From: Acutalibacteraceae bacterium
GTDB taxonomy: Bacteria; Bacillota; Clostridia; Oscillospirales; Acutalibacteraceae
Reading direction: 5' to 3'
Assembly: GCA_045656665.1 (NCBI GenBank)
Contig: JAZORP010000054.1
Span: forward strand, 1 to 62,451
Length of the DNA stretch: 62,451 nucleotides
Shown here piece after piece: positions 1,584 through 54,883 of the stretch; position 1 is the stretch's first letter, and every line of letters begins with the position of its first letter. The translations under genes and the position numbers were made by a program. The notes below the pieces were generated by a model. The model was not told the origin of the DNA. It did no database searches and worked only from the letters and a program-made list of their open reading frames with translations.

Positions 1584-2912
<1,329 letters not shown>

Positions 2913-2958
2913 TTATAATCTATTATGTATATTTAATATAAAGGATGCGCTAAAAAGC

Positions 2959-3717
2959 ATGGAAAATATAGAAAACACCACTCACTCAAATATTATCTGC
3001 GGCAGAAACCCCGTTCTTGAAGCTGTGCGCTCAGGCAGGGAGATAGACCGCCTGCTTGTGGCTCACGGTGTGAGCGGAGGGTCTGTGACCGCAATTATTG
3101 CAAAATGCAAAGCAAAAGGAATACTTATAAAAGAGATCAGCCCCCAGAAGCTCGACTATTATTGCGGCGGCGCAAATCATCAGGGTGTAGCCGTGATGTT
3201 TGCCTCTCAGGAGTATTCCACACCCGAGGAGATACTTGAGCTTGCAAAGCAGCGGGGCGAACAGCCTTTTGTAATTATCTGTGACGAAATCGAAGACCCG
3301 CACAATCTCGGCGCTATAATAAGAACTGCCGAGGCCTGCGGCGTTCACGGTATAATCATTCCAAAAAGGAGAAGCGCCTCCCTCAATGCTACGGTGGCAA
3401 AATCGGCAAGCGGCGCCCTCGAATATATGAAGGTGGCTCGTGTAACCAACATTGCCGACACAATAGACAGCCTTAAAGAAAACGGTGTCTGGGTTTTCGG
3501 CGCGGATATGGATGGTGACGATTTTGCTCAAGTAGATTTCGATATGCCCTGCGCACTTGTCATAGGAAACGAGGGAAAAGGAATAGGGCGGCTGATCGCC
3601 AAAAAGTGTGACCGTATAGTCAGCCTACCGATGCTGGGTAAAATCAACTCGCTTAATGCTTCGGTTGCAGCGGGCGTGCTGATGTACGAAGTGGTTCGCA
3701 AAAGGAGAAGAAAATGA
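2959..3717 (+). CDS. rlmB: TrmH/SpoU-family 23S rRNA 2'-O-methyltransferase (RlmB-like)
   Basis: GRNPVLEA N-terminal substrate-binding domain; DPHNLGAIIRTA, GNEGKGI, SLNASVAAGV SpoU motifs; start trimmed to ATG 2959. Confidence 0.85.
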   Translation: MENIENTTHSNIICGRNPVLEAVRSGREIDRLLVAHGVSGGSVTAIIAKCKAKGILIKEISPQKLDYYCGGANHQGVAVMFASQEYSTPEEILELAKQRGEQPFVIICDEIEDPHNLGAIIRTAEACGVHGIIIPKRRSASLNATVAKSASGALEYMKVARVTNIADTIDSLKENGVWVFGADMDGDDFAQVDFDMPCALVIGNEGKGIGRLIAKKCDRIVSLPMLGKINSLNASVAAGVLMYEVVRKRRRK

Positions 3718-6308
3718 AGTTTTATTCAAACAAACAAGATAAAGAACTTTTGGAAGATATAAACTCTGATGCTGTTGTTTTTGATGCAGAGCGAAAAGAA
3801 AAGCCGCATGCTCCCCACGCCCTGACCGCCGACGAGGTTTTAGGAGTGAATTTCCCAAAAACCGAAATTACCGATTCAACCGGAGCCTTGGAGGCCCTTA
3901 AAAAACGTATCGCAATGGCGGCTAATAAGGAGTTTGAGGCCGCAGAGCCCATTTCTGAAACCAAAGAGAAAGCCGCACAGCAGATAGAGATTGATATACC
4001 CGAAACTAAGGCCTCTGCTATGCCATCAACGCCTGTTTCTGAGCCAGCACCTCAAAAATCCTCATTAATGGATAAATGCCAGCCCTATTTCCTTGACGAT
4101 GATGGCAAAAAAATAGGGCTTGACCGCGAGCCGCTTTATAAACTGCAGAGCGTGGCTGACATTATTAAATCCGACAGCGAGGAAACCATCAAAAGGCTCT
4201 CTCAAAAGTATGGCATTTCTTTTGACACTCCCGTAATTTCTACACCAACGCCTAAAACGGCAGAAAAAAATATGGCAACTCAGTTTCAAACAAAGCCTCA
4301 GCCCGAGATTGTGAAGGAAGATCCTCCCGCAAAGCCTCAGCCCGAAGCTACTCCCGCTCCGATTGTGATATCGGACATTGATATGCCCTCTGTTGCAACC
4401 GAGCCTATCAAAGCCGACAATAGCGACAATAACGCAACCGTCACATTTACGCCAATATCCGGCGGTGATGCCTCCGCTCCGCACATCTCGGTCACGACAA
4501 AAACTCAGCACATTGACCTGACCGGCGAGCTTATTAGCTTGGCAAATTCGACCGAAGAAACCGAGAAAAGTGAAGTTGAGCTTGAAAAGAATGATTTTGA
4601 CGATTTTGTTCCCGAGGAAGAATTTAACGATATCGCGCAGGCCAAAAAAATAATCCGCCGCCTTTCGATAAAAAAACGGAACACATTTTTGGCAACATTT
4701 TTCTCTTTCTTTTTAACATCACTTTTGGCAATAGCAAAGCTCCCGTTTATCATTGATCTATTGCTTTCACACACATTTGTAGGTATGATCATTTGCTCGT
4801 CTCTTTTGGGCATAATTATAATACTTAATATCCCGATGTTTAAATCCTTGCCCAAATTTTTTAGCCGCCGCTGTGAGCCCGACTCACTTTCTGCAACATC
4901 AGCGTTAACTACCGTTCTTTACGCGGTATTCGGCATAATAAGCGATGAGCTTTTTCTTGATATCCTGCTTTTAGAGGCAATAATACTCAGCTTCCGTAGC
5001 CTTTCCTCTTTTTGGAAAATTTCTTTCAATCTTTCTAATTTTAAGCTTATAAGCAGAAATGAGACGAAGCAAGCGGTAAAGCTTATAAGTGACCATGCGG
5101 TCACCTTTGCAATGGCCAAGGATGCAATCGAGGGAGATGTTCTTGTGGCATCTTCACAAAAAGCCGATCACCTGTCGGGATACTTTAAGTACACTACCTA
5201 TGGCTCCTTTTTAGGAGGCAGGCTACGAATTTTGGCTATTCTGTCTTTGTTGCTCTCGTGTGTGACGGGGCTTGCTTGCGCTTCTTACTTTGACGGCGCC
5301 GTCCACGGCTTATTTGCCGCCGCCGCAATAGAGTGTTTTGCTGCTTTGCCTACGCTTTTCTTCATTGACACCCTTCCGCTTTACAACTCGGCCAAAAAGC
5401 TCAACCGAACAGGCGCAATGATCGCAGGCAAAACAGGCGCAGAACATTTAGAGATGGCAAACGCCGTTGTTTTGGGTTCCTGTGATTTATTCCCAACAGG
5501 AACAGTTACCCTGCATCAAATGAAGATACTCGCAGAAAACAATCTGGATGACACACTTATAAGAGCCGCATCTTTAACAGAATATATCGGCAGCACCCTT
5601 GCCCCGATTTTCAAAGGAATTGCCAAGACAGGCAATATTTCGGTTCTCCCCGATGCCGACACGGTTAAATATGAGGACCGAATGGGAATTTCAGGCTGGG
5701 TTGATAACCGCCTTCTTTTCATAGGCAACCGTACCCTTATGGAAGCTCACGGAATTGATGTTCCTTCTGTAGAAGTGGACCGCAAAATTCTCCGTCAAGG
5801 CTACTTTCCGGTTTATGTTGCAACAAGAGACAAGGCCTGCGCGCTGCTTATAGTACAGTACAATGTAAATCCCAAAACTGCTCGCGAACTAAGAAAACTT
5901 ACTAAACTTGGAGTAACACTTCTTATCGACAACTCCGACCCAAACCTCACAGAGGAAATGATATGCGATTATTTAGGGCTTTACAGCGATTCAGTTAAGG
6001 TTATGTCGGCTGCGGGATGCCATATGCACAAAAGCACCGTAACACCGGTTAAAAGCGCTCTCTCCCCTGCTGTATATAAGGGTAGCAGATTGGCTTTAGC
6101 AACCATCCTTAACTGCGCTTCAAGGATAAAGCGTTCCAACACTTTGCTCTGTGTGATTTATGTCATTGCCGCCATATTAGGCGCTGTAATATTTGCCTAC
6201 GCTTCACTCGGAGGCTCAGGTTCCATGATAAGCGGCGCAACCCTCTTGATCTATGGGCTCATTTGCACCGTAGCTTCATACCTTATTTATTTGACACAAA
6301 GGCCTTAA
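3714..6308 (+). CDS. large membrane protein: disordered Pro/Glu/Thr-rich N-terminus plus degenerate heavy-metal P-type ATPase-like core
   Basis: 864-aa ORF with an ATGA overlap to rlmB; multiple TM stretches; GISGWVDNRLLFIGNRTLMEAHGIDV closely resembles the CopA/ZntA N-domain; DKTGT, CPC and GDGxND motifs are degenerate (see findings). Confidence 0.6.
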   Translation: MKFYSNKQDKELLEDINSDAVVFDAERKEKPHAPHALTADEVLGVNFPKTEITDSTGALEALKKRIAMAANKEFEAAEPISETKEKAAQQIEIDIPETKASAMPSTPVSEPAPQKSSLMDKCQPYFLDDDGKKIGLDREPLYKLQSVADIIKSDSEETIKRLSQKYGISFDTPVISTPTPKTAEKNMATQFQTKPQPEIVKEDPPAKPQPEATPAPIVISDIDMPSVATEPIKADNSDNNATVTFTPISGGDASAPHISVTTKTQHIDLTGELISLANSTEETEKSEVELEKNDFDDFVPEEEFNDIAQAKKIIRRLSIKKRNTFLATFFSFFLTSLLAIAKLPFIIDLLLSHTFVGMIICSSLLGIIIILNIPMFKSLPKFFSRRCEPDSLSATSALTTVLYAVFGIISDELFLDILLLEAIILSFRSLSSFWKISFNLSNFKLISRNETKQAVKLISDHAVTFAMAKDAIEGDVLVASSQKADHLSGYFKYTTYGSFLGGRLRILAILSLLLSCVTGLACASYFDGAVHGLFAAAAIECFAALPTLFFIDTLPLYNSAKKLNRTGAMIAGKTGAEHLEMANAVVLGSCDLFPTGTVTLHQMKILAENNLDDTLIRAASLTEYIGSTLAPIFKGIAKTGNISVLPDADTVKYEDRMGISGWVDNRLLFIGNRTLMEAHGIDVPSVEVDRKILRQGYFPVYVATRDKACALLIVQYNVNPKTARELRKLTKLGVTLLIDNSDPNLTEEMICDYLGLYSDSVKVMSAAGCHMHKSTVTPVKSALSPAVYKGSRLALATILNCASRIKRSNTLLCVIYVIAAILGAVIFAYASLGGSGSMISGATLLIYGLICTVASYLIYLTQRP

Positions 6309-44854: not shown

Positions 44855-44930
44855 CGAGGTGTGGCGCAGTTGGTAGCGCACTAGTTTTGGGAACTAGATG
44901 CCGCAGGTTCGAGCCCTGTCACCTCGACCA
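44855..44930 (+). tRNA. tRNA-Pro (anticodon UGG)
   Basis: Cloverleaf folded by hand: acceptor CGAGGTG/CACCTCG, D arm GCGC-AGTTGGTA-GCGC, anticodon arm CTAGT-TTTGGGA-ACTAG, T arm GCAGG-TTCGAGC-CCTGT, encoded CCA; 76 nt. Confidence 0.92.
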
Positions 44931-46652: not shown

Positions 46653-47213
46653 TTATTCTTTCATAGCATAAGCGACATTTAATAATACCTCCAACTTATT
46701 TTCTGGAAGTTCTTGAGCTATGTTAATTAGATCTAAAATACTAGATGATTTTCTTATATTGGTGTGATGTTTATTAGGTTTACTGTTTAAACGCATTTCT
46801 TTTTGAATCTCTTCATCAACATTTTCAAAATATTCCAATGTAACGCCAAAGAAATTTGATATTTTATTGAGTGTACAAACTCTAGGCATACTACCATTTT
46901 TCCAACGTGTAATAGCTGGAAGAGAGAGGTTTAACTCGTTAGCCACATTAGCAGGAGTAATGTTTGCCCTATTACAAAGTTCTAAAAATCTACTATAAAA
47001 AATTGTTGATTTATCGTTTGAATTATAGTCATTTTTCAATTCATCCATTGAAACCGCAAAAAAGTCTGCAATTTTTTTGCAGTTTGCATCCGTTGGATCA
47101 CCTCCATTTTTCCAGCGTGTCACACAAGATTTACTAATTTGAAGCATATTCGCTACCGAACAAGGCGTCATCCTTTTTGAATTACATAATAAAATAAACT
47201 TTTCATAAAACAT
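46653..47213 (-). CDS. XRE-family regulator with two tandem HTH domains
   Basis: Two repeats of the pattern ...CSVANMLQISKSCVTRWKNG... / ...ANVANELNLSLPAITRWKNG... Confidence 0.8.
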   Translation of the reverse strand: MFYEKFILLCNSKRMTPCSVANMLQISKSCVTRWKNGGDPTDANCKKIADFFAVSMDELKNDYNSNDKSTIFYSRFLELCNRANITPANVANELNLSLPAITRWKNGSMPRVCTLNKISNFFGVTLEYFENVDEEIQKEMRLNSKPNKHHTNIRKSSSILDLINIAQELPENKLEVLLNVAYAMKE

Positions 47214-47604: not shown

Positions 47605-47639
47605 AAAGCCGCAGAGCATAAACGCTTTGCGGCTTTTTC
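47605..47639 (+). terminator. orphan terminator-like hairpin
   Basis: AAAGCCGCA...TGCGGCTTT stem followed by TTTC; no convincing upstream CDS on the + strand. Confidence 0.4.
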
Positions 47640-47761
47640 AAAAAACATTTTGTATTAAATTTTTTAAATATTATATACGTAGGGAAATAGATAATGTTTA
47701 TAAACCCACAGAATATTATTACAGTTTCTGTGAAAACTTATATAAAAAGGGGAGTGATAAA

Positions 47762-48061
47762 ATGGAAACGAATGAACTGGTTAAAAATACGCTGGACCAG
47801 ATTCCACAGGCCGTCCCAAACGCAAAACGCATAGTAGGTCTTGTGAAAAAGAACGGCAGAGTGACGGGATATAAATTATCAGATGAAACCTTTATAACAA
47901 AATCCCAAGCAGTGGAAAAGGCAAAGCAAGGGCAAATCGCGGGAGTGGGGATCGCGCACAGAAGAGATACTGAATATCTCAAAGCAATCCCAAATGGAAA
48001 TGAAAATGACAACCTCGGCAATCTGCCGGCGTTTCCACCTGATAATCAATCTTACAAATAA
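47762..48061 (+). CDS. DUF3892-like small protein (99 aa)
   Basis: METNELVKN...GRVTGYKLSDETFITKSQAVEKAKQGQIAGV...YLKAIPNGNENDNLGNLP resembles my recollection of DUF3892; start trimmed to the ATG after GGGGAGTG. Confidence 0.6.
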   Translation: METNELVKNTLDQIPQAVPNAKRIVGLVKKNGRVTGYKLSDETFITKSQAVEKAKQGQIAGVGIAHRRDTEYLKAIPNGNENDNLGNLPAFPPDNQSYK

Positions 48062-48249: not shown

Positions 48250-48286
48250 AAAACAAAAAATCGCAGAGTTTAACTTCTCTGCGATT
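48250..48286 (-). terminator. rho-independent terminator ending the RiPP-like operon
   Basis: Minus strand reads TCGCAGAG AAGTTAAA CTCTGCGA followed by TTTTTTGTTTTT. Confidence 0.65.
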
Positions 48287-48739
48287 TTATTTTTTTGAAA
48301 ACAACGGGCGGATATATTTATAATATTTTTTAAAATAATGTAAAAAACCCCATGTTCGGGTGTATAAAAAATACCCAACTGATTTTTTTACCGGAATTTC
48401 CCTTCCGTTTCTGTTAAACGAAGCTACCACACCGATTATCTGATTATCCTTTACAGGAAACTCCTTTTGCCACTGATTATCTCCGCGGCAGGTATAGGAA
48501 CCATCCTTATGAACCTTTATAATGCGGTGGAGAATAAATTCTCCATTCTCGCGTCTATAAAACGGCACGTCATATTTCTTGAGCGGAATGGTCGGCTTCA
48601 CAAGGGTTATTTTATCGCGGCGATGATAAACCATCGGTTGCATACTGTAGCCCGAAACCGTAAATGTGACGCGGGCATCGCGCTCAAGCGTTTCAGCTAT
48701 CAGCGGATACATATCCGCCATAGGCACAAGTTCACTCAT
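48287..48739 (-). CDS. S26/S24-superfamily peptidase, ER/archaeal (SipW-like) signal-peptidase type, no membrane anchor
   Basis: SGYSMQPM (Ser box), ILHRII (His box), CRGDNQ box; 150 aa; no N-terminal TM helix. Confidence 0.7.
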   Translation of the reverse strand: MSELVPMADMYPLIAETLERDARVTFTVSGYSMQPMVYHRRDKITLVKPTIPLKKYDVPFYRRENGEFILHRIIKVHKDGSYTCRGDNQWQKEFPVKDNQIIGVVASFNRNGREIPVKKSVGYFLYTRTWGFLHYFKKYYKYIRPLFSKK

Positions 48740-48998
48740 CTATGCAGCCGTCTTCCCGCAAGCTATCGATAAAACTCAAAGTATCAGCAAGGGCGGTTTC
48801 CTTATCTATATTATATTTATCCGCTAAAAGGGAGGCCAGCGTCTCGGCATCTGTTTCCTGCTCCATATTTTCCCACAAAAAGCGGCCAGCCTCATTAAAG
48901 GTGGTAACACCTGTGAAAAGCAACGATTCGCTCTCCATATCCATAAGTATATTTTGGCCACATAACGATTTTAATAAAAAATTGCTCTTTCTTTTCAT
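48732..48998 (-). CDS. PqqD-family protein (RiPP recognition element-like)
   Basis: FNEAGRFLWENME...ETLASLLADKYNID...ALADTLSFIDSLREDGCI is the typical PqqD pattern; 88 aa; 8-nt overlap with the peptidase gene. Confidence 0.8.
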   Translation of the reverse strand: MKRKSNFLLKSLCGQNILMDMESESLLFTGVTTFNEAGRFLWENMEQETDAETLASLLADKYNIDKETALADTLSFIDSLREDGCIDE

Positions 48999-49024: not shown

Positions 49025-49726
49025 TTAATCTCTTTTGCCGCTCATAGTCTCCCAGGACATTTTAGCGGCTTCAAGAGTCGGCGTGCATCCCATTTTATAA
49101 ACAGGTACTGCATTTAAAATTTTCTCCAAAACATCAAGTTGCAAGCTCATGCTTTCGCTATCCGTTTTCTTATAGCAGGCAGTCAGCGATGCGAAAACTG
49201 CTTCGGCTTTTTCGGTAGGCTTTATCCAATTTTGCTCGCTTCTGGTTAAAAAGCAGATTGCCTCCAGCTTAACTCCAAGGTTAACCGAAATATCGTTCTT
49301 GCCGCTCCAAGGCGATCCGTATGCATAGATACCGTCTTGCATAATGCGAAGAATGGGTTTATCATCATTTAATATATATGCCCTATCGCCAAAAAGCTCA
49401 AGCCATTTGGAAGTGTGGGTGGATTTGCCTGTGCCGGATGGGGCTGAGAAAAGATAAGCCCTGTCATCCACAACAACTGCCGAAGAATGAAACCTCAAAC
49501 CGCCGCGCCTGAACATCTGCAAAGAAAATAAATACCCCTCATATAAATATAACGCCGTGGTATCATCGCAAAGAGGATATCTCTCTTTTGCAGAAAGGAG
49601 GCTTGACTCAATAACAAAATCGGTAGGCGCATCGTCTTTGATGAGATATTTCCGGGCTCGCTCAATTGTGACCTCGCTGCAATTTTTGAGTTCGACCACA
49701 AAATCGGCGATACGGTACTTTGCCAT
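49025..49726 (-). CDS. HPr kinase/phosphorylase-like P-loop protein
   Basis: FSAPSGTGKSTHT Walker-A-like loop followed by AYILNDDKPIL, as in the HprK C-domain and HprK-related RiPP kinases; AAGGAG SD. Confidence 0.65.
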   Translation of the reverse strand: MAKYRIADFVVELKNCSEVTIERARKYLIKDDAPTDFVIESSLLSAKERYPLCDDTTALYLYEGYLFSLQMFRRGGLRFHSSAVVVDDRAYLFSAPSGTGKSTHTSKWLELFGDRAYILNDDKPILRIMQDGIYAYGSPWSGKNDISVNLGVKLEAICFLTRSEQNWIKPTEKAEAVFASLTACYKKTDSESMSLQLDVLEKILNAVPVYKMGCTPTLEAAKMSWETMSGKRD

Positions 49727-49738
49727 AAATTTCTCCTT

Positions 49739-49772
49739 TTAAAAAAGTGATAGGGAAAAACTCCCTATCACT
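49739..49772 (-). terminator. intrinsic terminator/attenuator between the precursor-like ORF and the enzyme genes
   Basis: Minus strand reads AGTGATAGGGA GTTTT TCCCTATCACT (11-bp stem) followed by TTTTTT, immediately before the kinase SD. Confidence 0.65.
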
Positions 49773-49787
49773 CTTAAGTTAGATTCC

Positions 49788-49916
49788 TTAACCTTCGTTG
49801 CTTCCCAAAATTGTAAGCCCGCCGCCGCCGGTCAATGTTCCGCCGCCGGTAAGACTGTTTGCAATAGCTTCAACAGCTTCGAAATCTATGCGTATCTTTT
49901 TTGGTGCTTCGTACAT
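49788..49916 (-). CDS. 42-aa precursor-peptide-like ORF
   Basis: Hand translation gives MYEAPKKIRIDFEAVEAIANSLTGGGTLTGGGGLTILGSNEG; GAGGTGA SD 5-6 nt upstream; not in the ORF track; the + strand ORF 49798..50088 is its shadow. Confidence 0.5.
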   Translation of the reverse strand: MYEAPKKIRIDFEAVEAIANSLTGGGTLTGGGGLTILGSNEG

Positions 49917-49965
49917 TTTTTCACCTCATTCAATAAAATTTACAAAGCCAATAAGACTTGGATTA

Positions 49966-51354
49966 TTACTGAGCCGCTGTGTAAGCTGTTTTGTATGCTA
50001 CGGCAGCAGCAGATTCGTCAGCTTGGATCATATCGATGAAAGATACAGAACCGGTAGCATCGATATCACCTTCACCGCTTTCTGTTAAGAAATAAATTGT
50101 GAAGTTGAGATCATCGCCGAACTGGTCAACGTTCATACCGCTGTAGGTTACATTAGCTTCATACTTAACTCTGCCCTTTAATACATACTCCCAAGCAGTA
50201 TCATCAATAGCAGCAGCGCCGAATTTAACATCTGAACCGCCATTAACATTTGCCTTTAAACCGATTTCAGTAATCTTAGATTCAGCAAGAGCAATCTGCT
50301 CGGCAAGAGCTTTGAACTGAGCTCCTGTCATAGAAACATTAGCGGTTGCGCTCATATCTTTGAGGTTGTAAGTAGATGTGAAAGAAGCACTGTCGCCGAT
50401 TGTGCCGGTAGTACCCTCAGCTTCTGCATCCTCAGCTGCAGCCCAAGCAGTGTAAGCAGCGGCTACATTATCGGTAACAACATCCTTAACAGCCTTAGAA
50501 GCTACTTCAGACTTAAGAACGATTTCATCGTCGCCTACAGTGTACTTAACATAAGCAACGAAGTTAACGGTGTCTTCCATCTGGTCAAAGTTAGCGCCTG
50601 TGTAAGCTGCCCAAGGATCGAGTGTAGCAGAGCCAGCTAAAATAGCAGCCCAACCTGCATCGTCGATTGCAACAGCAGAACCGTCTGCGGTGTTCTCATC
50701 GGGAGTAGCACCGATAGCAACCTTAACGCCAACCTCGGTGATTTTACCGCCTATGCTGTTGATACGGTCTGCGAGAGCTTTAGCTTCATCAGCAGTGTAA
50801 GCAGCGGTGCCTTTTACAGCCTGAGTAGCATTGTCACCCGAAACGGTAACGCCCTTAACAGCAGCAGCGATTTCTGCATCAGAAGCTGCAACGGTCAAAG
50901 TAGCGCCTGTCTCTGCAACTGTAACATCTGCTAAATCGGCATCAGCGTAAACGGAACCGTCAGCAAAAGTGATAGCAAACGTGTCGCCATAAGCTGCGTT
51001 AGCAGGAACTGAAACATCAAATGTGAACAAATCGCCACCTGTTACAGAAGCGAGATTCTCTGAAAGGAAATAGATTTCCTTTTCTTCGTGTACAGCAACA
51101 TTAGCGTCAGAAATATCTTCAGCCAAAGTCAAGTCGCCAATATTAACGGTGAACTCAGCGCCTGCAACAGCGTCAATATTCTCAGCATTAACGCGAATAG
51201 TTACAGTGTCGCCTGCTTTCGGTGTGGTGGTTGAAGCGATCAACTTGATGGCAGCTGTACCTTCAGCAGATGCCATAATACCGCAAGTAATTGCAGACAA
51301 GCAGAGAACCACAGCCAAAACACACGCCAAAGATTTTTTGAAAAGTTTTGTCAT
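49966..51354 (-). CDS. secreted cohesin-like protein with two C-terminal repeats
   Basis: Signal peptide MTKLFKKSLACVLAVVLCLSAITCGIMASA; N-terminal cohesin-like beta domain (KAGDTVTIRVNAENIDAVAGAEFTV); two about 110-aa repeats; start trimmed to ATG 51354 after AGGAGA. Confidence 0.6.
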   Translation of the reverse strand: MTKLFKKSLACVLAVVLCLSAITCGIMASAEGTAAIKLIASTTTPKAGDTVTIRVNAENIDAVAGAEFTVNIGDLTLAEDISDANVAVHEEKEIYFLSENLASVTGGDLFTFDVSVPANAAYGDTFAITFADGSVYADADLADVTVAETGATLTVAASDAEIAAAVKGVTVSGDNATQAVKGTAAYTADEAKALADRINSIGGKITEVGVKVAIGATPDENTADGSAVAIDDAGWAAILAGSATLDPWAAYTGANFDQMEDTVNFVAYVKYTVGDDEIVLKSEVASKAVKDVVTDNVAAAYTAWAAAEDAEAEGTTGTIGDSASFTSTYNLKDMSATANVSMTGAQFKALAEQIALAESKITEIGLKANVNGGSDVKFGAAAIDDTAWEYVLKGRVKYEANVTYSGMNVDQFGDDLNFTIYFLTESGEGDIDATGSVSFIDMIQADESAAAVAYKTAYTAAQ

Positions 51355-51456: not shown

Positions 51457-51580
51457 ATTATAGCACCAATCAAAAAATGTGTCAAGCATAAAAAAATGAC
51501 ATTGTGCACAAAATGTGAAAGTTGTTTTTGTGCGAAAAACAGAAAGCATTTTTCCTATGTATAATAAGTTCCAATTCTTG

Positions 51581-52165
51581 CTATTTTTCAACATTTCTCT
51601 GCTCATCCAAAGACAAAAGAAAGCTTGGCATGAATTCGTTTAAGAAAACCTCTGCCTCGGGAAGGTCCATTTTTTCGATAGCCTTCCTTGTTGACCTTTC
51701 GGCAACTGCAAATTCTCTGTTGCCCATATTAAGCTCCTCAGCGCATTTTATAAGGGCGGAAATTTTGTCGGCCGCTTTGCAGAGCCTCTCTGTCAGCTCA
51801 TCGGGATTGTATATCTTCGAAAAATCCTCCCTTAAATCCTCAGGCAGCATTTCCATAAGCTGTTTTTCGGCGGTGGCCTCTATCTGCTTGTAGGCTGCTT
51901 TTATCTCAGCGTTATAATATTTTATGGGAGTGGGCATATCGCCGGTTATTATCTCGGAGGTGTCGTGATACATAGCTACCGTTGCGGTGTAGTAAGGGTC
52001 GGCATTGCCGCCGAATCGCCTGTTATTTATAAGAGCGAGGGCATGAGCTATTTGCGCCACCTCAAGCGAATGCTCGCTCAGATTTTCCTGACGGGTATTG
52101 CGCATAAGCCCCCAACGGTAGATATTTTTCATTCTCGACATCATTGCATAAAAATGACTTTGCAA
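51581..52165 (-). CDS. yfbR: 5'-deoxynucleotidase, YfbR-like HD-domain phosphohydrolase
   Basis: QSHFYAMMSRMKNIYRWGLMRNTRQENLSEHSLEV...MYHDTSEIITGD is collinear with E. coli YfbR from residue 2; TTG start. Confidence 0.88.
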   Translation of the reverse strand: MQSHFYAMMSRMKNIYRWGLMRNTRQENLSEHSLEVAQIAHALALINNRRFGGNADPYYTATVAMYHDTSEIITGDMPTPIKYYNAEIKAAYKQIEATAEKQLMEMLPEDLREDFSKIYNPDELTERLCKAADKISALIKCAEELNMGNREFAVAERSTRKAIEKMDLPEAEVFLNEFMPSFLLSLDEQRNVEK

Positions 52166-52261: not shown

Positions 52262-54883
52262 ATGGATATGATGATTTTTTCTCAAGCTAAATCTGTGGCT
52301 TTGGGACCGCAAAAGGAAAAATATCTCTCCACATTTTTAACAGCTTTGCTTTTGGCCGCTGTAATTTTTCTTCCCTTTATGCTTATGAGCGAAGGGTATT
52401 TCATATTTTACGGTGACTTTAATGTCCAGCAGATACCCTTTTATCAAGAATGCCACAAGGCTGTAAGAGAGGGCAACATTTTCTGGAGCTGGACAACCGA
52501 CCTTGGCGCCAATTTTATCGGGTCGTACAGCTTTTACCTTTTAGGCAGCCCTTTCTTCTGGCTGACAATACCTTTTTCAAACAGCTTTGTGCCATATCTT
52601 ATGGGGCCGCTGCTGATACTCAAATTCGCCTGTGCGGCGCTCACTTCTTATATGTATATCCGCAGGTTCACCCGCAGAAGTGATACTGCTCGGCTTGGGG
52701 CGCTTTTGTATGCCTTTTCGGGCTTTTCGGTCTACAATATATTTTTTAACCACTTCCACGAAGCCATCATCTTCTTCCCTCTCCTGCTGTTATCGGTTGA
52801 GCTGCTCTTGACAGAAAACCGCCGTTTCTGTTTTGCGGCGATGGTTTGCATCTGCGCCGTTTCGAATTATTACTTCTTCTTCGGAATGGTCATTTTTACA
52901 ATTATTTATTTCATTGTAAGGCTTAGCTCTAAATCGATAAAACTGAGGCTTTCGCACTTTTTGGTTTTTGTATTCGAGGCTGTGCTGGGGCTTGCGCTGT
53001 CGGCCGCCTTATTGCTGCCGTCCTGTCTGGCTATTATCGGCAACTACCGAGTTTCCAGCCTACTGACGGGCTGGAGCGCCATTATGTACGGCAAGGAGCA
53101 GATATACGGGAATATTCTGCAATGCTTCTTTTTCCCGCCGGACATTCCCGCTCGTCCGGTCTTTTTCCCGAGCGCTAATGTCAAGTGGTCGTCCTTAGGA
53201 GGGTGGCTGCCGCTCTTTAGTATGGTGGGGCTTTTTACCTGGTTTTCTCAAAGGAAAAAACATTGGCTTAAGCGACTTATCGGAATATGCATTTTTATGG
53301 CCCTTGTCCCGATACTCAACAGCGCCTTCTCAGCCTTCAATACGGCCTACTACGCACGCTGGTTTTATATGCCGATACTAATGATATGCCTTGCCACTGT
53401 TGCTCTGACCGAAGACAGCTCTGTTGATTGGAGTGTCGGCTACAAATGGGTGCTCGGCATTACAGTAGCCGTCAGTGCGGTTATAGGCTTCTTCCCGCAA
53501 GAGAACTCCGACGGGGAAATCAGCTTTGGGCTTTACACTCAAAGTGAAAACAATATGTATGCCTTCCGCTTTTGGATAGCCTGTGCGATAGCGATAATAA
53601 GCCTTGTGATACTGGGCTTGCTGCTGAAAATACTCAAAACCGACCGTGCCGCGTTCTGCCGCTCGGCCACGGCTTGTGTTTGTATCATTTCGGCAGTTTA
53701 TGCAACCATTTTTATAGCCTGCGGGCGTTCACACTCCTATAATATAGAAACCGTTGTCATCGACCAGCTCATCGAGGGAGAGGTCGATTTGGAGGACAAC
53801 AGCAAATACCGTGTAGATGTTTACAGCGGGGTGGACAATACCTCTATGTATTTAGGGTTATCTGGGATAAATGCCTTTCACTCAATAGTTCCGGATTCGG
53901 TTTTTGAATTTTATGACTATATAGGTGTTGAGCGTACCGTCGGCAGCAGACCGAGAGCCGATATTGCAGCCATAAGGCCGTTGCTGTCGGTCAAGTATCT
54001 GCTTAACCGTGTGGACGGTGAGAGCTTTGTTGACACCGATACTAAGGAAACCGCGATGCCGGGCTACACCTATTTAAAAACCGACGGTGGCTATTATATA
54101 TATGAGAACGACAACCACATTCCCTACGGTTTTTCATACGAATATTATATGAGCTACGATTTTTGCAATGCATATTTAGAAAGCAACCGCGCCGATCTGA
54201 TGCTCAAAGCAATACTGCTCACAGACGAGCAGATCGAAAAATACGGCCATTTATTCAAGAATATTGAAGATATAGAGTATGACGGGACATATACTCCCGA
54301 TAAGGTATCCTTAGCGCTTACCGACACTGCTATGGAATATGACGCCGCCCGCCTTCGCGAAACCTCGTCCGAGTATTTTGATACCGACGACAAAGGCTTT
54401 ACTTCAAAGGTGACCCGTGAGAGCGAAACGCTGGTCTTTTTCTCGGTGCCTTATGATGAGGGCTGGTCCGCCACGGTAAACGGGCAAGCGGCAAAAATCG
54501 AAAAGGTCAATGCAGGGTTTATGGCGGTTAAAGTTTCCGCTGGCACAAGCGAGATAAGATTTGATTATATGACACCCGGCCTTTTGACCGGCATCAAGAT
54601 AACTACCGTCGCCGCAGGGGTTTTTGTTGTCTATATTTTGGTAATCATTTTCCACAAACGAGGGCGCAAAGCAGATATCTGCTACCCCGAAGGCGACAGG
54701 CTCTTGGAGGAATGGCGCCGTCAAGAATTAGCAGAGGCTTGCAATAGCGCGAAAAATTCCTGCGCCCCACCCAAAAAGCGCAGTATTCTTGATGACAGCC
54801 CCGACCTTAAAATTCCTCCCATTAATCAAGGCTTCAGTGGTGGATTTAAGATTGATACCGATGCTTTCAATGATGATAATTAA
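52262..54883 (+). CDS. YfhO-family polytopic membrane protein (putative glycosyltransferase)
   Basis: 873 aa; more than 10 TM helices; FYGDFNVQQIPFY N-terminal motif typical of YfhO; large extracytoplasmic C-domain plus terminal TM. Confidence 0.82.
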   Translation: MDMMIFSQAKSVALGPQKEKYLSTFLTALLLAAVIFLPFMLMSEGYFIFYGDFNVQQIPFYQECHKAVREGNIFWSWTTDLGANFIGSYSFYLLGSPFFWLTIPFSNSFVPYLMGPLLILKFACAALTSYMYIRRFTRRSDTARLGALLYAFSGFSVYNIFFNHFHEAIIFFPLLLLSVELLLTENRRFCFAAMVCICAVSNYYFFFGMVIFTIIYFIVRLSSKSIKLRLSHFLVFVFEAVLGLALSAALLLPSCLAIIGNYRVSSLLTGWSAIMYGKEQIYGNILQCFFFPPDIPARPVFFPSANVKWSSLGGWLPLFSMVGLFTWFSQRKKHWLKRLIGICIFMALVPILNSAFSAFNTAYYARWFYMPILMICLATVALTEDSSVDWSVGYKWVLGITVAVSAVIGFFPQENSDGEISFGLYTQSENNMYAFRFWIACAIAIISLVILGLLLKILKTDRAAFCRSATACVCIISAVYATIFIACGRSHSYNIETVVIDQLIEGEVDLEDNSKYRVDVYSGVDNTSMYLGLSGINAFHSIVPDSVFEFYDYIGVERTVGSRPRADIAAIRPLLSVKYLLNRVDGESFVDTDTKETAMPGYTYLKTDGGYYIYENDNHIPYGFSYEYYMSYDFCNAYLESNRADLMLKAILLTDEQIEKYGHLFKNIEDIEYDGTYTPDKVSLALTDTAMEYDAARLRETSSEYFDTDDKGFTSKVTRESETLVFFSVPYDEGWSATVNGQAAKIEKVNAGFMAVKVSAGTSEIRFDYMTPGLLTGIKITTVAAGVFVVYILVIIFHKRGRKADICYPEGDRLLEEWRRQELAEACNSAKNSCAPPKKRSILDDSPDLKIPPINQGFSGGFKIDTDAFNDDN

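Follow-up and report, generated by a model that had tools for sequence, protein, structure and literature searches.

Linear polyphosphorylated peptides (LPP) were described in Bacilli in May 2026 by Popov et al. (Nat Commun 2026;17:6633, PMC13381572). In Paenibacillus alginolyticus DSM5050, the lppA-K-B-S-D-N cluster encodes a precursor, an HprK-like kinase, a discrete recognition element (RRE) of the type for ribosomally made peptides modified after translation (RiPPs), a SipW-like type I signal peptidase (SpI), an MsbA-like exporter and an NTP transferase, and in Bacilli such clusters are often neighbours of capsule loci and of lasso clusters of the paeninodin type (PMC13381572). Here, we analyzed a 62,451-nucleotide stretch of DNA from Acutalibacteraceae bacterium (assembly GCA_045656665.1, contig JAZORP010000054.1, positions 1 to 62,451; hereafter the window), focusing on a 42-codon open reading frame (ORF) at positions 49788-49916 of the minus strand. 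Judged by profile matches and synteny, this ORF is a real, conserved gene encoding a RiPP precursor peptide, and it is the first gene of a predicted A-K-B-S cassette composed of the precursor, an HprK/ScmC-like kinase, a PqqD-type RRE and a cytoplasmic SipW/archaeal-type signal peptidase. We consider it likely that this cassette is a divergent relative of LPP and would work like the lppAKBS core.

In the LPP system, the kinase, RRE and peptidase have been characterized by experiment (PMC13381572). When produced in a B. subtilis host, LppK adds one to four phosphates to core Ser3 and does not accept the substitutions S3T and S3Y. LppS cleaves after the small residue T-1, requires LppB to do so and depends on S29, H68 and D93. 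For binding, the LppA leader requires Y-16 and P-13, and LppB N33/D70 fix Pro/Tyr. According to the same paper, neither the final product made in nature nor what it does is known. The paper defined its protein classes with TIGR04249/TIGR04352 ("HprK kinase"), TIGR02228 and PqqD; these profile models also match the window proteins. A clostridial clade was listed there without being analyzed. We took the LPP reference sequences from Supplementary Data 1 of that paper, in which membership of sequence similarity network (SSN) cluster 1, the cluster of LppS, is defined by edges at E<1e-23.

The genes of the window cassette, together with the ribosome-binding site of the first, are as follows.

49788 to 49916, minus strand: precursor peptide gene (42 aa plus stop), called from its translation, the sister-locus profile and conserved synteny
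49921 to 49927, minus strand: Shine-Dalgarno sequence GAGGTGA, separated from the ATG by 4 nt
49025 to 49726, minus strand: putative HprK/ScmC-like P-loop kinase, 233 aa, Walker A SGTGKST, called from profile matches and the AlphaFold2 (AF2) fold
48732 to 48998, minus strand: discrete PqqD-type RRE, 88 aa, PF05402 at 56.2 bits against a cut-off of 23.4
48287 to 48739, minus strand: SipW/archaeal-type SpI-like leader peptidase, 150 aa, S24/S26-like, overlapping the RRE gene by 8 nt

Re-reading the window DNA gave the translation MYEAPKKIRIDFEAVEAIANSLTGGGTLTGGGGLTILGSNEG and the preceding GAGGTGA exactly as in an earlier, sequence-only reading of this stretch. The other features named in that reading were also present, namely the Y2-E-A-P5 start, A17-I18-A19 and, within the last 21 residues (22-42), nine Gly, four Thr and no Cys. 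The count of one Ser was wrong, for the peptide has two, S21 and S39; E41 is its sole acidic residue beyond residue 16. On the opposite strand, the 96-aa ORF that had been regarded as spurious does exist (49798-50088), and it has no Pfam match. The description of the small ORF as unannotated is doubtful, since its exact 42-aa product is a called protein already in a public protein collection. The identical peptide has likewise been called on a second, independent metagenome contig in ENA, which differs from the window at 4 of 1,294 bases; none of the differences falls within the ORF, so that dN/dS between these near-identical sequences is uninformative. A word-index search with the 42-aa peptide alone returned the peptide itself as the sole match. 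In clustering at 90% identity, proteins of the window form singletons.

To place the ORF among its relatives, we used the loci of the closest kinase relatives (49-61% kinase identity), which were reached by exact-protein look-ups and are called sister loci here. The order small ORF, kinase, PqqD, SpI was kept in all 13 of the closest loci examined. In the sister loci, an ORF of 32-41 codons, preceded each time by its own GGTG or GAGGTG ribosome-binding site, lies directly upstream of the kinase gene, and the PqqD and peptidase genes follow. The encoded peptides include MYEAPKMVRVELDAIEAIASGGAQPGGGGGFGGMGS, MYEAPKMVRVNFVSENVATTGGGVGGGGVVDISGED, MYKAPKAELVRFEAFANGGGNGEPVGGGSGED and MKFQNPELKVINFASFETVADSDEGVGSKSGIVEGD. 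We built a precursor profile from ten small ORFs at this position, with the window peptide excluded, and compared it with 1,721 six-frame segments of the window. The ORF at 49788-49916 was the sole significant match (E=7.4e-8 over its full length; E=1.1e-5 for the leader alone), and the next best segment reached E of about 0.4-1. The window peptide also carries the combination by which ORFs of this kind were recognized, that is, [YF]xxP, a Phe at +10 and a Gly-/acid-rich tail, encoded directly upstream of the kinase.

Codon usage was compared over the first 12 codons of the window ORF and its counterpart in sister locus L001. Eight codons differ, four of them synonymously, and the residues E, A, P and F are retained although their codons changed. 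The sequence-only reading had proposed a search for homologs next to PqqD/HprK-like genes and a check of codon-level conservation; the former linked the ORF to its relatives at the E value given above, and in the latter half of the differing codons proved synonymous. These results bear on whether the ORF could be a chance frame, a non-coding spacer or a piece of conserved DNA or RNA such as the leader of the kinase mRNA. The ORF is indeed short, with a low-complexity, Gly-rich stretch making up its second half. Against such an origin stand the uniqueness of the profile match in the window, the amino acids kept through synonymous changes, the length differences among orthologues that preserve the frame, the ribosome-binding site belonging to each of them, and 901 homologous small proteins (see below). 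We regard it as very improbable that the ORF does not encode a peptide.

The 233-aa protein is, by its best matches, a putative HprK-like kinase. It matched TIGR04249 (E=7.6e-6, 25.5 bits against a cut-off of 125) and TIGR04352 (E=1.1e-3, 18.2 bits against a cut-off of 200), and its family comprises more than 5,363 proteins with the precomputed Pfam label PF27840 ScmC. The AF2 model had a mean confidence (pLDDT) of 92.4, and its top fold match in the PDB was HprK/P (1kkl, E=4e-5), followed by PEPCK; the TM scores of these fold matches were moderate (0.38-0.51) and common to HprK/P and PEPCK. A comparison of the kinase profile with PDB sequences gave no match. Like SynChlorMet ScmC (TIGR04249/PF27840) and HprK-related kinase A (TIGR04352), the window protein appears to be a P-loop HprK-like enzyme encoded beside PqqD-family proteins. 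It differs from them in that their radical-SAM or exosortase-linked contexts are absent here and in that its scores are far under the equivalog cut-offs.

In an alignment of 62 RREs, N35, Y62, D72 and F76 of the window RRE aligned with N33, Y60, D70 and F74 of LppB, and a comparison with PDB sequences returned only PbaB1 (E=0.11). The 150-aa protein matched Peptidase_S24 (E=2.7e-4) and TIGR02228 (E=9.4e-8, 32.1 bits against a cut-off of 51.85) and contains the motifs GxSMxP, HR and GDN, with S32, H71 and E93 as putative catalytic residues. S32 and H71 were invariant in 51 aligned peptidases and aligned with S29 and H68 of LppS. The enzyme shares the GxSMxP Ser, the HR His, the GDN box and, by inference, a preference for a small residue at -1 with the SipW/ER-archaeal-type signal peptidase I (S26B; TIGR02228). 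In contrast to that type, it lacks an obvious membrane anchor, scores under the TIGR02228 cut-off and has an LPP counterpart that is RRE-dependent. As sequence inspection revealed no obvious N-terminal hydrophobic anchor, the peptidase is presumably cytoplasmic.

Beyond the sister loci, scans of genome and metagenome contigs listed at least 160 further loci with 34-46% kinase identity, and none was closer than 46% among the metagenome matches listed. Nearly all of these kinase loci came from metagenome-assembled genomes of gut or rumen Clostridia. Neighbour clustering covered the first 93 loci, all of which have the kinase; PqqD was found in 58, an SpI-like peptidase in 49, an ABC exporter in 25 and NTP_transf_5 in 15, and CpsB/CpsD capsule genes lay nearby in several. 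K-RRE-SpI was the commonest architecture. The window peptidase has the commoner stand-alone form of about 150 aa, as do 42 of the 49 peptidases, while the other 7 are fused to a GNAT domain. Loci with such fusions are L001, L002-5, L091-92 and L174-176; the C-terminal GNAT fusions (329-382 aa) lie, for example, at 1500-2495 in L001, at 4996-5985 in L002 and at 4963-5952 in L091, and they were also seen in L174-L176.

With a profile built from 32 precursors, 901 small proteins were recovered at E<=0.01. Every one of them was unnamed or "hypothetical" and without a Pfam family, and some occurred on 100-346 contigs. The family consensus was Y-x-x-P-E-[MI]-E-I-x-x-F-[ED]-[TV]-E-D-[VI]-I-T-T-S-G-G, with a Ser at Y+19 in 113 of 115 members. 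The cores had a median length of 18 aa, 20% Gly and a median charge of -4, and 27 of 118 contained no other Ser or Thr. The window peptide shares Y, P, F, I and S with this family at the ungapped offsets 0, 3, 10, 16 and 19. A literature search for the motif EDVITTS found nothing relevant. In L040, three precursor-like ORFs (MKYTKPEM..., MYTKPEIAF... and MYTKPEIKL...) surround a single kinase gene (2284-3810). From these comparisons, the window cassette belongs to a large K-RRE-SpI RiPP clade of Clostridia that has no name, with more than 5,000 predicted kinases and about 900 called precursors.

The window system and LPP resemble each other in several features. Both have the order precursor, HprK-like kinase, discrete PqqD RRE and SipW/archaeal-type SpI leader peptidase; a YxxP leader; the RRE Asn/Asp and the peptidase Ser/His; a Ser about 18-19 residues after the Tyr; a Gly-rich core; and no macrolactam cyclase. 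As in LPP, the SpI gene lies beside a discrete RRE gene (48287-48739 overlapping 48732-48998), and the cassette contains a putative HprK-like kinase of the TIGR04249/TIGR04352 class, recognized by under-cut-off profile matches and by fold. Relatives of the window cassette likewise adjoin capsule genes, NTP_transf_5 and ABC exporters.

There are also differences. The predicted window core has 23 aa and is approximately neutral, whereas the LPP core has 45 aa and is basic; the window leader is without VLxHQxIxFET; no lppD or lppN was found in the window; the hosts are gut and rumen Clostridia rather than Bacilli; and the window has a conserved secreted protein, apparently in the same transcript. 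Of the LPP leader consensus YxxPxVLxHQxIxFETxxS, the window peptide shares only YxxP and the downstream Ser, which lies at Y+19 instead of Y+18, and the HQ and the I-x-FET register are absent. The clostridial precursor profile scored LppA (MEENTKREQKLYARPMVLSQQPVRFET/AQSWNKG..., where the slash marks the cut) at 0.3 bits, and neither precursor profile detects the other. With 24% identity and E=4e-10 to LppS, the window peptidase falls outside SSN cluster 1. It is closer to SCH01704.1 of an uncultured Ruminococcus (33% identity, E=2e-26), a member of SSN cluster 9, for which PMC13381572 records an RRE of the "other" kind and neither an LPP RRE nor a precursor. Similarly, the window RRE is 31% identical to SCH01659.1, the RRE of cluster 9, which the same paper placed in "RRE others"; by BLAST it does not belong to the LppB clade, and the functional N and D are nevertheless retained. 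An MsbA-like exporter and NTP_transf_5 were not found near the window operon, and both occur in some distant relatives. Compared by SSN cluster, RRE clade, leader consensus and the pair of exporter and NTP transferase, the window system lies outside LPP as strictly defined.

Several observations weigh against reading the cassette as a working relative of LPP and deserve to be considered together. The TIGR04249 and TIGR04352 scores of the kinase are far under the curated cut-offs. Where LppS has the essential D93, 49 of 51 SpI peptidases, including the window enzyme (E93, 48461-48463), have a Glu. The window RRE gave no BLAST alignment with LppB, and its presumed target, the window leader, has a Lys at Y+5, a position that is hydrophobic in the leaders of lasso peptides and LPP. 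No other member of the family is as divergent as the window peptide, which a profile of 120 mainstream members scores at 0.6 bits. The Ser at Y+19 is missing in the sister peptides of L001, L002, L086, L088, L173 and L174, so the acceptor may differ within the subfamily, and the presumed equivalence of S21 rests on ungapped spacing and on intermediate peptides. Finally, neither an exporter nor an NTP transferase lies near the operon in the window, which bears on the fate of the product. Since the mainstream profile misses the window peptide, its link to the mainstream family runs through synteny, orthologous enzymes and intermediate peptides; the mainstream-only profile does detect the sister peptides of L001, L174, L089 and L173.

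By analogy with LppA and from the alignments, we divided the peptide as follows.

49860 to 49916, minus strand: predicted leader, residues 1-19, MYEAPKKIRIDFEAVEAIA, with the Y2/P5 RRE-binding motif, F12 and a candidate cut after A19
49791 to 49859, minus strand: predicted core, residues 20-42, NSLTGGGTLTGGGGLTILGSNEG, with candidate acceptors S21 and S39

In the proposed mechanism, the 88-aa RRE would bind the N-terminal Y2-x-x-P5 motif of the leader as an added beta-strand. The 233-aa kinase would add one or more phosphates to a core Ser, most likely S21 and alternatively S39. With the RRE presenting the substrate, the 150-aa Ser/His peptidase would then remove the leader after a small residue, most likely A19 and alternatively A14. 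The product would be a linear Gly/Thr-rich (phospho)peptide of about 23 residues. In addition, a hairpin located 3' of the precursor gene (described below) probably keeps the precursor mRNA in excess over the enzyme mRNA. We infer binding, phosphorylation, both sites, the role of the hairpin and the product by homology or analogy.

For the cleavage site, A17-I18-A19/N20-S21 aligns with V-I-T/T-S of the family, which is hypervariable right after ...VITTS. A cut after A19 is favored because A19 aligns with the family Thr and LppS cleaves after a small residue. The alternative, F12-E13-A14/, resembles F-3/E-2/T-1 of LppA and agrees with the F-x-[AST] that is conserved among sister peptides. The AxA site suggested by the sequence-only reading is thus plausible insofar as A19 takes the place of the Thr in VIT/TS, but AxA is not conserved as such and A14 offers another choice. 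For the acceptor, S21 stands where the family has its conserved Ser and is the analogue of S3 in LppA. S39 is a real alternative because a C-terminal-proximal Ser recurs in the sister loci, in the pattern G-S-[GND]-[ED]-[DG]; in L086 this Ser is the only Ser or Thr of the peptide. Thr is an unlikely acceptor because LppK rejects the change of Ser to Thr. Of the proposed kinase targets, four Thr and one Ser, the Ser part is plausible, with S21 and S39 as candidates, and the Thr part is doubtful given that LppK rejects S3T. The broader proposal of a RiPP precursor with a YxxP leader for the PqqD RRE, an S26-like peptidase and a kinase is supported by the synteny, the peptide family and the LPP system.

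A different chemistry was also considered, in which the precursor is real and the group added by the ScmC/HprK-like enzyme is not (poly)phosphate, for example in nucleotidylation or another ATP-dependent modification, or the key modification is made elsewhere, for example N-acetylation by the GNAT domain fused to the peptidase in sister loci. The kinase assignment uses sub-threshold TIGRFAM matches and a moderate fold match (TM 0.38-0.51) common to PEPCK; a single LppK has been tested so far, and the natural final LPP product is not known; GNAT fusions occur in sister loci, and several sister peptides are without the conserved Ser. All of this leaves room for another modification. On the other hand, these TIGRFAMs make up the "HprK kinase" group that PMC13381572 lists around homologues of LppS, and the characterized kinases beside PqqD RREs (LppK and the paeninodin-type enzymes) are all Ser kinases. 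Moreover, every sister peptide has at least one core Ser, the single Ser of L086 is the only hydroxyl residue after Tyr2, and the window peptidase has no GNAT domain. We judge a modification other than phosphorylation to be unlikely.

The YxxP leader raised the question of a lasso peptide. The phosphorylated lasso peptides of the paeninodin type in Firmicutes (A, C, B1, B2, D, K with or without N) resemble the window system in that a discrete PqqD B1 recognizes a [Y/W]xxP leader and an HprK-like kinase modifies a Ser while the precursor is linear, and their nucleotidyltransferase and ABC exporter recur in relatives of the window. They differ in that the window has neither a cyclase nor a transglutaminase-type B2, leader removal there would be by a serine SpI-type peptidase, and the paeninodin acceptor is the C-terminal Ser, whereas only L175 among the sister peptides ends in Ser. 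The combination of a [Y/W]xxP leader and a PqqD RRE is present in the window (Y2, P5; PF05402 at 56.2 bits) and is common to LPP, so it does not discriminate.

The lasso assignment was rejected, as no cyclase or B2 was found and no acidic residue occupies core positions 7-9. Lasso cores have Gly, Ala, Ser or Cys at position 1 and Asp or Glu at positions 7-9; in the window peptide, the only acidic residue beyond residue 16 is E41, which satisfies this spacing for no plausible cut. The earlier statement that a lasso macrolactam is not possible is thus borne out. Among 13 window ORFs of at least 440 aa that were compared with Pfam, none matched an Asn-synthetase-like family (MetRS, RNase J, PBP, MalQ, YfhO and others were found), a scan of smaller, B2-sized ORFs limited to the vicinity of the operon revealed no such protease, and the neighbours of the 93 related loci contained no lasso cyclase or B2 cluster. 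A lasso precursor whose cyclase and B2 are encoded elsewhere would agree with the YxxP leader, with the PqqD protein scoring best against lasso B1 models and with the tailoring of Firmicutes lasso clusters by HprK-like kinases. It is scarcely credible given the core sequence, the lack of these enzymes in the window and its relatives, and the dedicated SpI-type leader peptidase, which replaces B2 as in LPP.

Returning to the A-K-B-S cassette, the operon reads, all on the minus strand, promoter-like site, secreted protein, small ORF, hairpin, kinase, PqqD, peptidase and terminator-like hairpin, and the cassette appears to be co-transcribed with the upstream secreted protein. The features surrounding the cassette genes are as follows.

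51457 to 51485, minus strand: sigma-70-type promoter-like site, TTGACA-17-TATAAT with TG, 12/12 hexamer consensus match, upstream of the first operon gene
49966 to 51354, minus strand: secreted protein of no known family, 462 aa from the ATG (start TTG 51405 in the ORF list), directly upstream of the precursor gene and co-oriented
49743 to 49775, minus strand: 14-bp hairpin and U run between the precursor and kinase genes, -22 kcal/mol, z=-3.3 (folding)
48257 to 48288, minus strand: intrinsic-terminator-like hairpin, 12-bp stem then T run, directly after the peptidase gene

The promoter at 51457-51485 is a candidate called by consensus match only. A terminator scan did not list the hairpin at 49743-49775, which was revealed by folding, and hairpins at the same position, 3' of the precursor gene, are found in L001, L088, L089 and L091. 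It looks like an attenuator or a partial terminator, a function suggested by its position and structure.

The upstream secreted protein is conserved in 13 sister loci with a length of 462-575 aa; examples are L002 2083-3798, L089 2058-3785, L091 2025-3713, L173, L175 and L176. No Pfam match at E<=1 recurred among its members, a comparison of its profile with PDB sequences gave none, and a single-sequence AF2 model was unusable (pLDDT 40). The family consensus contains the motif GGxIxxFG...FxxYVxY..NGE twice, and a BLAST self-comparison of the window protein detected no internal repeat. In Ruminococcus flavefaciens (GCA_900119075.1; L177 3177-7126), genes for a 1270-aa Cohesin(weak)/DUF285 protein and for a dockerin protein immediately precede one of the family precursors (MEKKYTTPEMEITEFEAEDVITTSGG...). 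PqqD and NTP_transf_5 follow this precursor without an adjoining kinase or peptidase gene, and the locus borders on a resolvase gene. The Cohesin(weak)/DUF285 protein ends in 22 residues that resemble residues 282-303 of the window upstream protein (E=0.005 in a single comparison), which is only a hint of a functional link between the precursor and the upstream protein.

On the terminator side of the operon, the window carries tRNA-Pro at 44855-44930 on the plus strand, then 277- and 272-aa proteins without a Pfam match, an RstR-like double helix-turn-helix repressor at 46653-47213 (minus strand) and a DUF3892 protein at 47627-48061 (plus strand). The segment 44855-48061 may be an integrated element ending right at the operon terminator. 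On the promoter side lie a YfbR-like HD 5'-deoxynucleotidase (51581-52165, minus strand) and a YfhO-family membrane protein (52262-54883, plus strand). YfhO proteins are linked to cell-envelope glycosylation. This flank may recall the capsule-locus context of LPP, and the resemblance could equally be a coincidence. Farther away, an 864-aa ORF at 3714-6308 (plus strand) has no Pfam match at E<=1e-5.

The composition of the neighborhood raises the possibility that the operon no longer functions and is decaying, as what is left of a larger cluster that formerly included an exporter and an NTP transferase. Neither of the two (exporter or NTP_transf_5) lies near the operon, the leader deviates from the family consensus and a possible mobile element adjoins. 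Nevertheless, at least 13 loci that have diverged to 49-61% kinase identity share this arrangement, with the upstream secreted protein and no exporter; in them all ORFs are intact and all catalytic residues are retained, and the window operon has a consensus promoter-like site and a terminator-like hairpin. Decay is therefore quite improbable. A more speculative idea, conceivable and yet not what we expect, is that these loci form a distinct, undescribed exporter-less branch of the clostridial clade, in which a very short Gly-rich peptide is made with a conserved secreted, possibly cohesin-related surface protein, the acceptor has moved from the Ser close to the leader to one near the C-terminus and sister systems add a GNAT domain to the leader peptidase. 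The product of such a branch would act intracellularly or on the surface protein and would not be exported in the manner of an antibiotic.

What is new here is best filed as a clostridial variant of the recently described LPP-like logic, LPP itself being already known from Bacilli. The kinase-RRE-SpI logic would extend to Clostridia of the gut and rumen, in a far larger clade without a name, some of whose precursors occur on hundreds of human-gut contigs; the leader code of this clade differs from that of LPP, its short cores being acidic or Gly-rich. The precursor profile enables annotation of genes that are now all unnamed and without a Pfam family. The minimal four-gene cassette should be easy to reconstitute, and the natural variants, with or without a GNAT, an exporter or an NTP transferase and with a shifted Ser, would be useful for studying how the kinases and SpI-type peptidases choose their sites.

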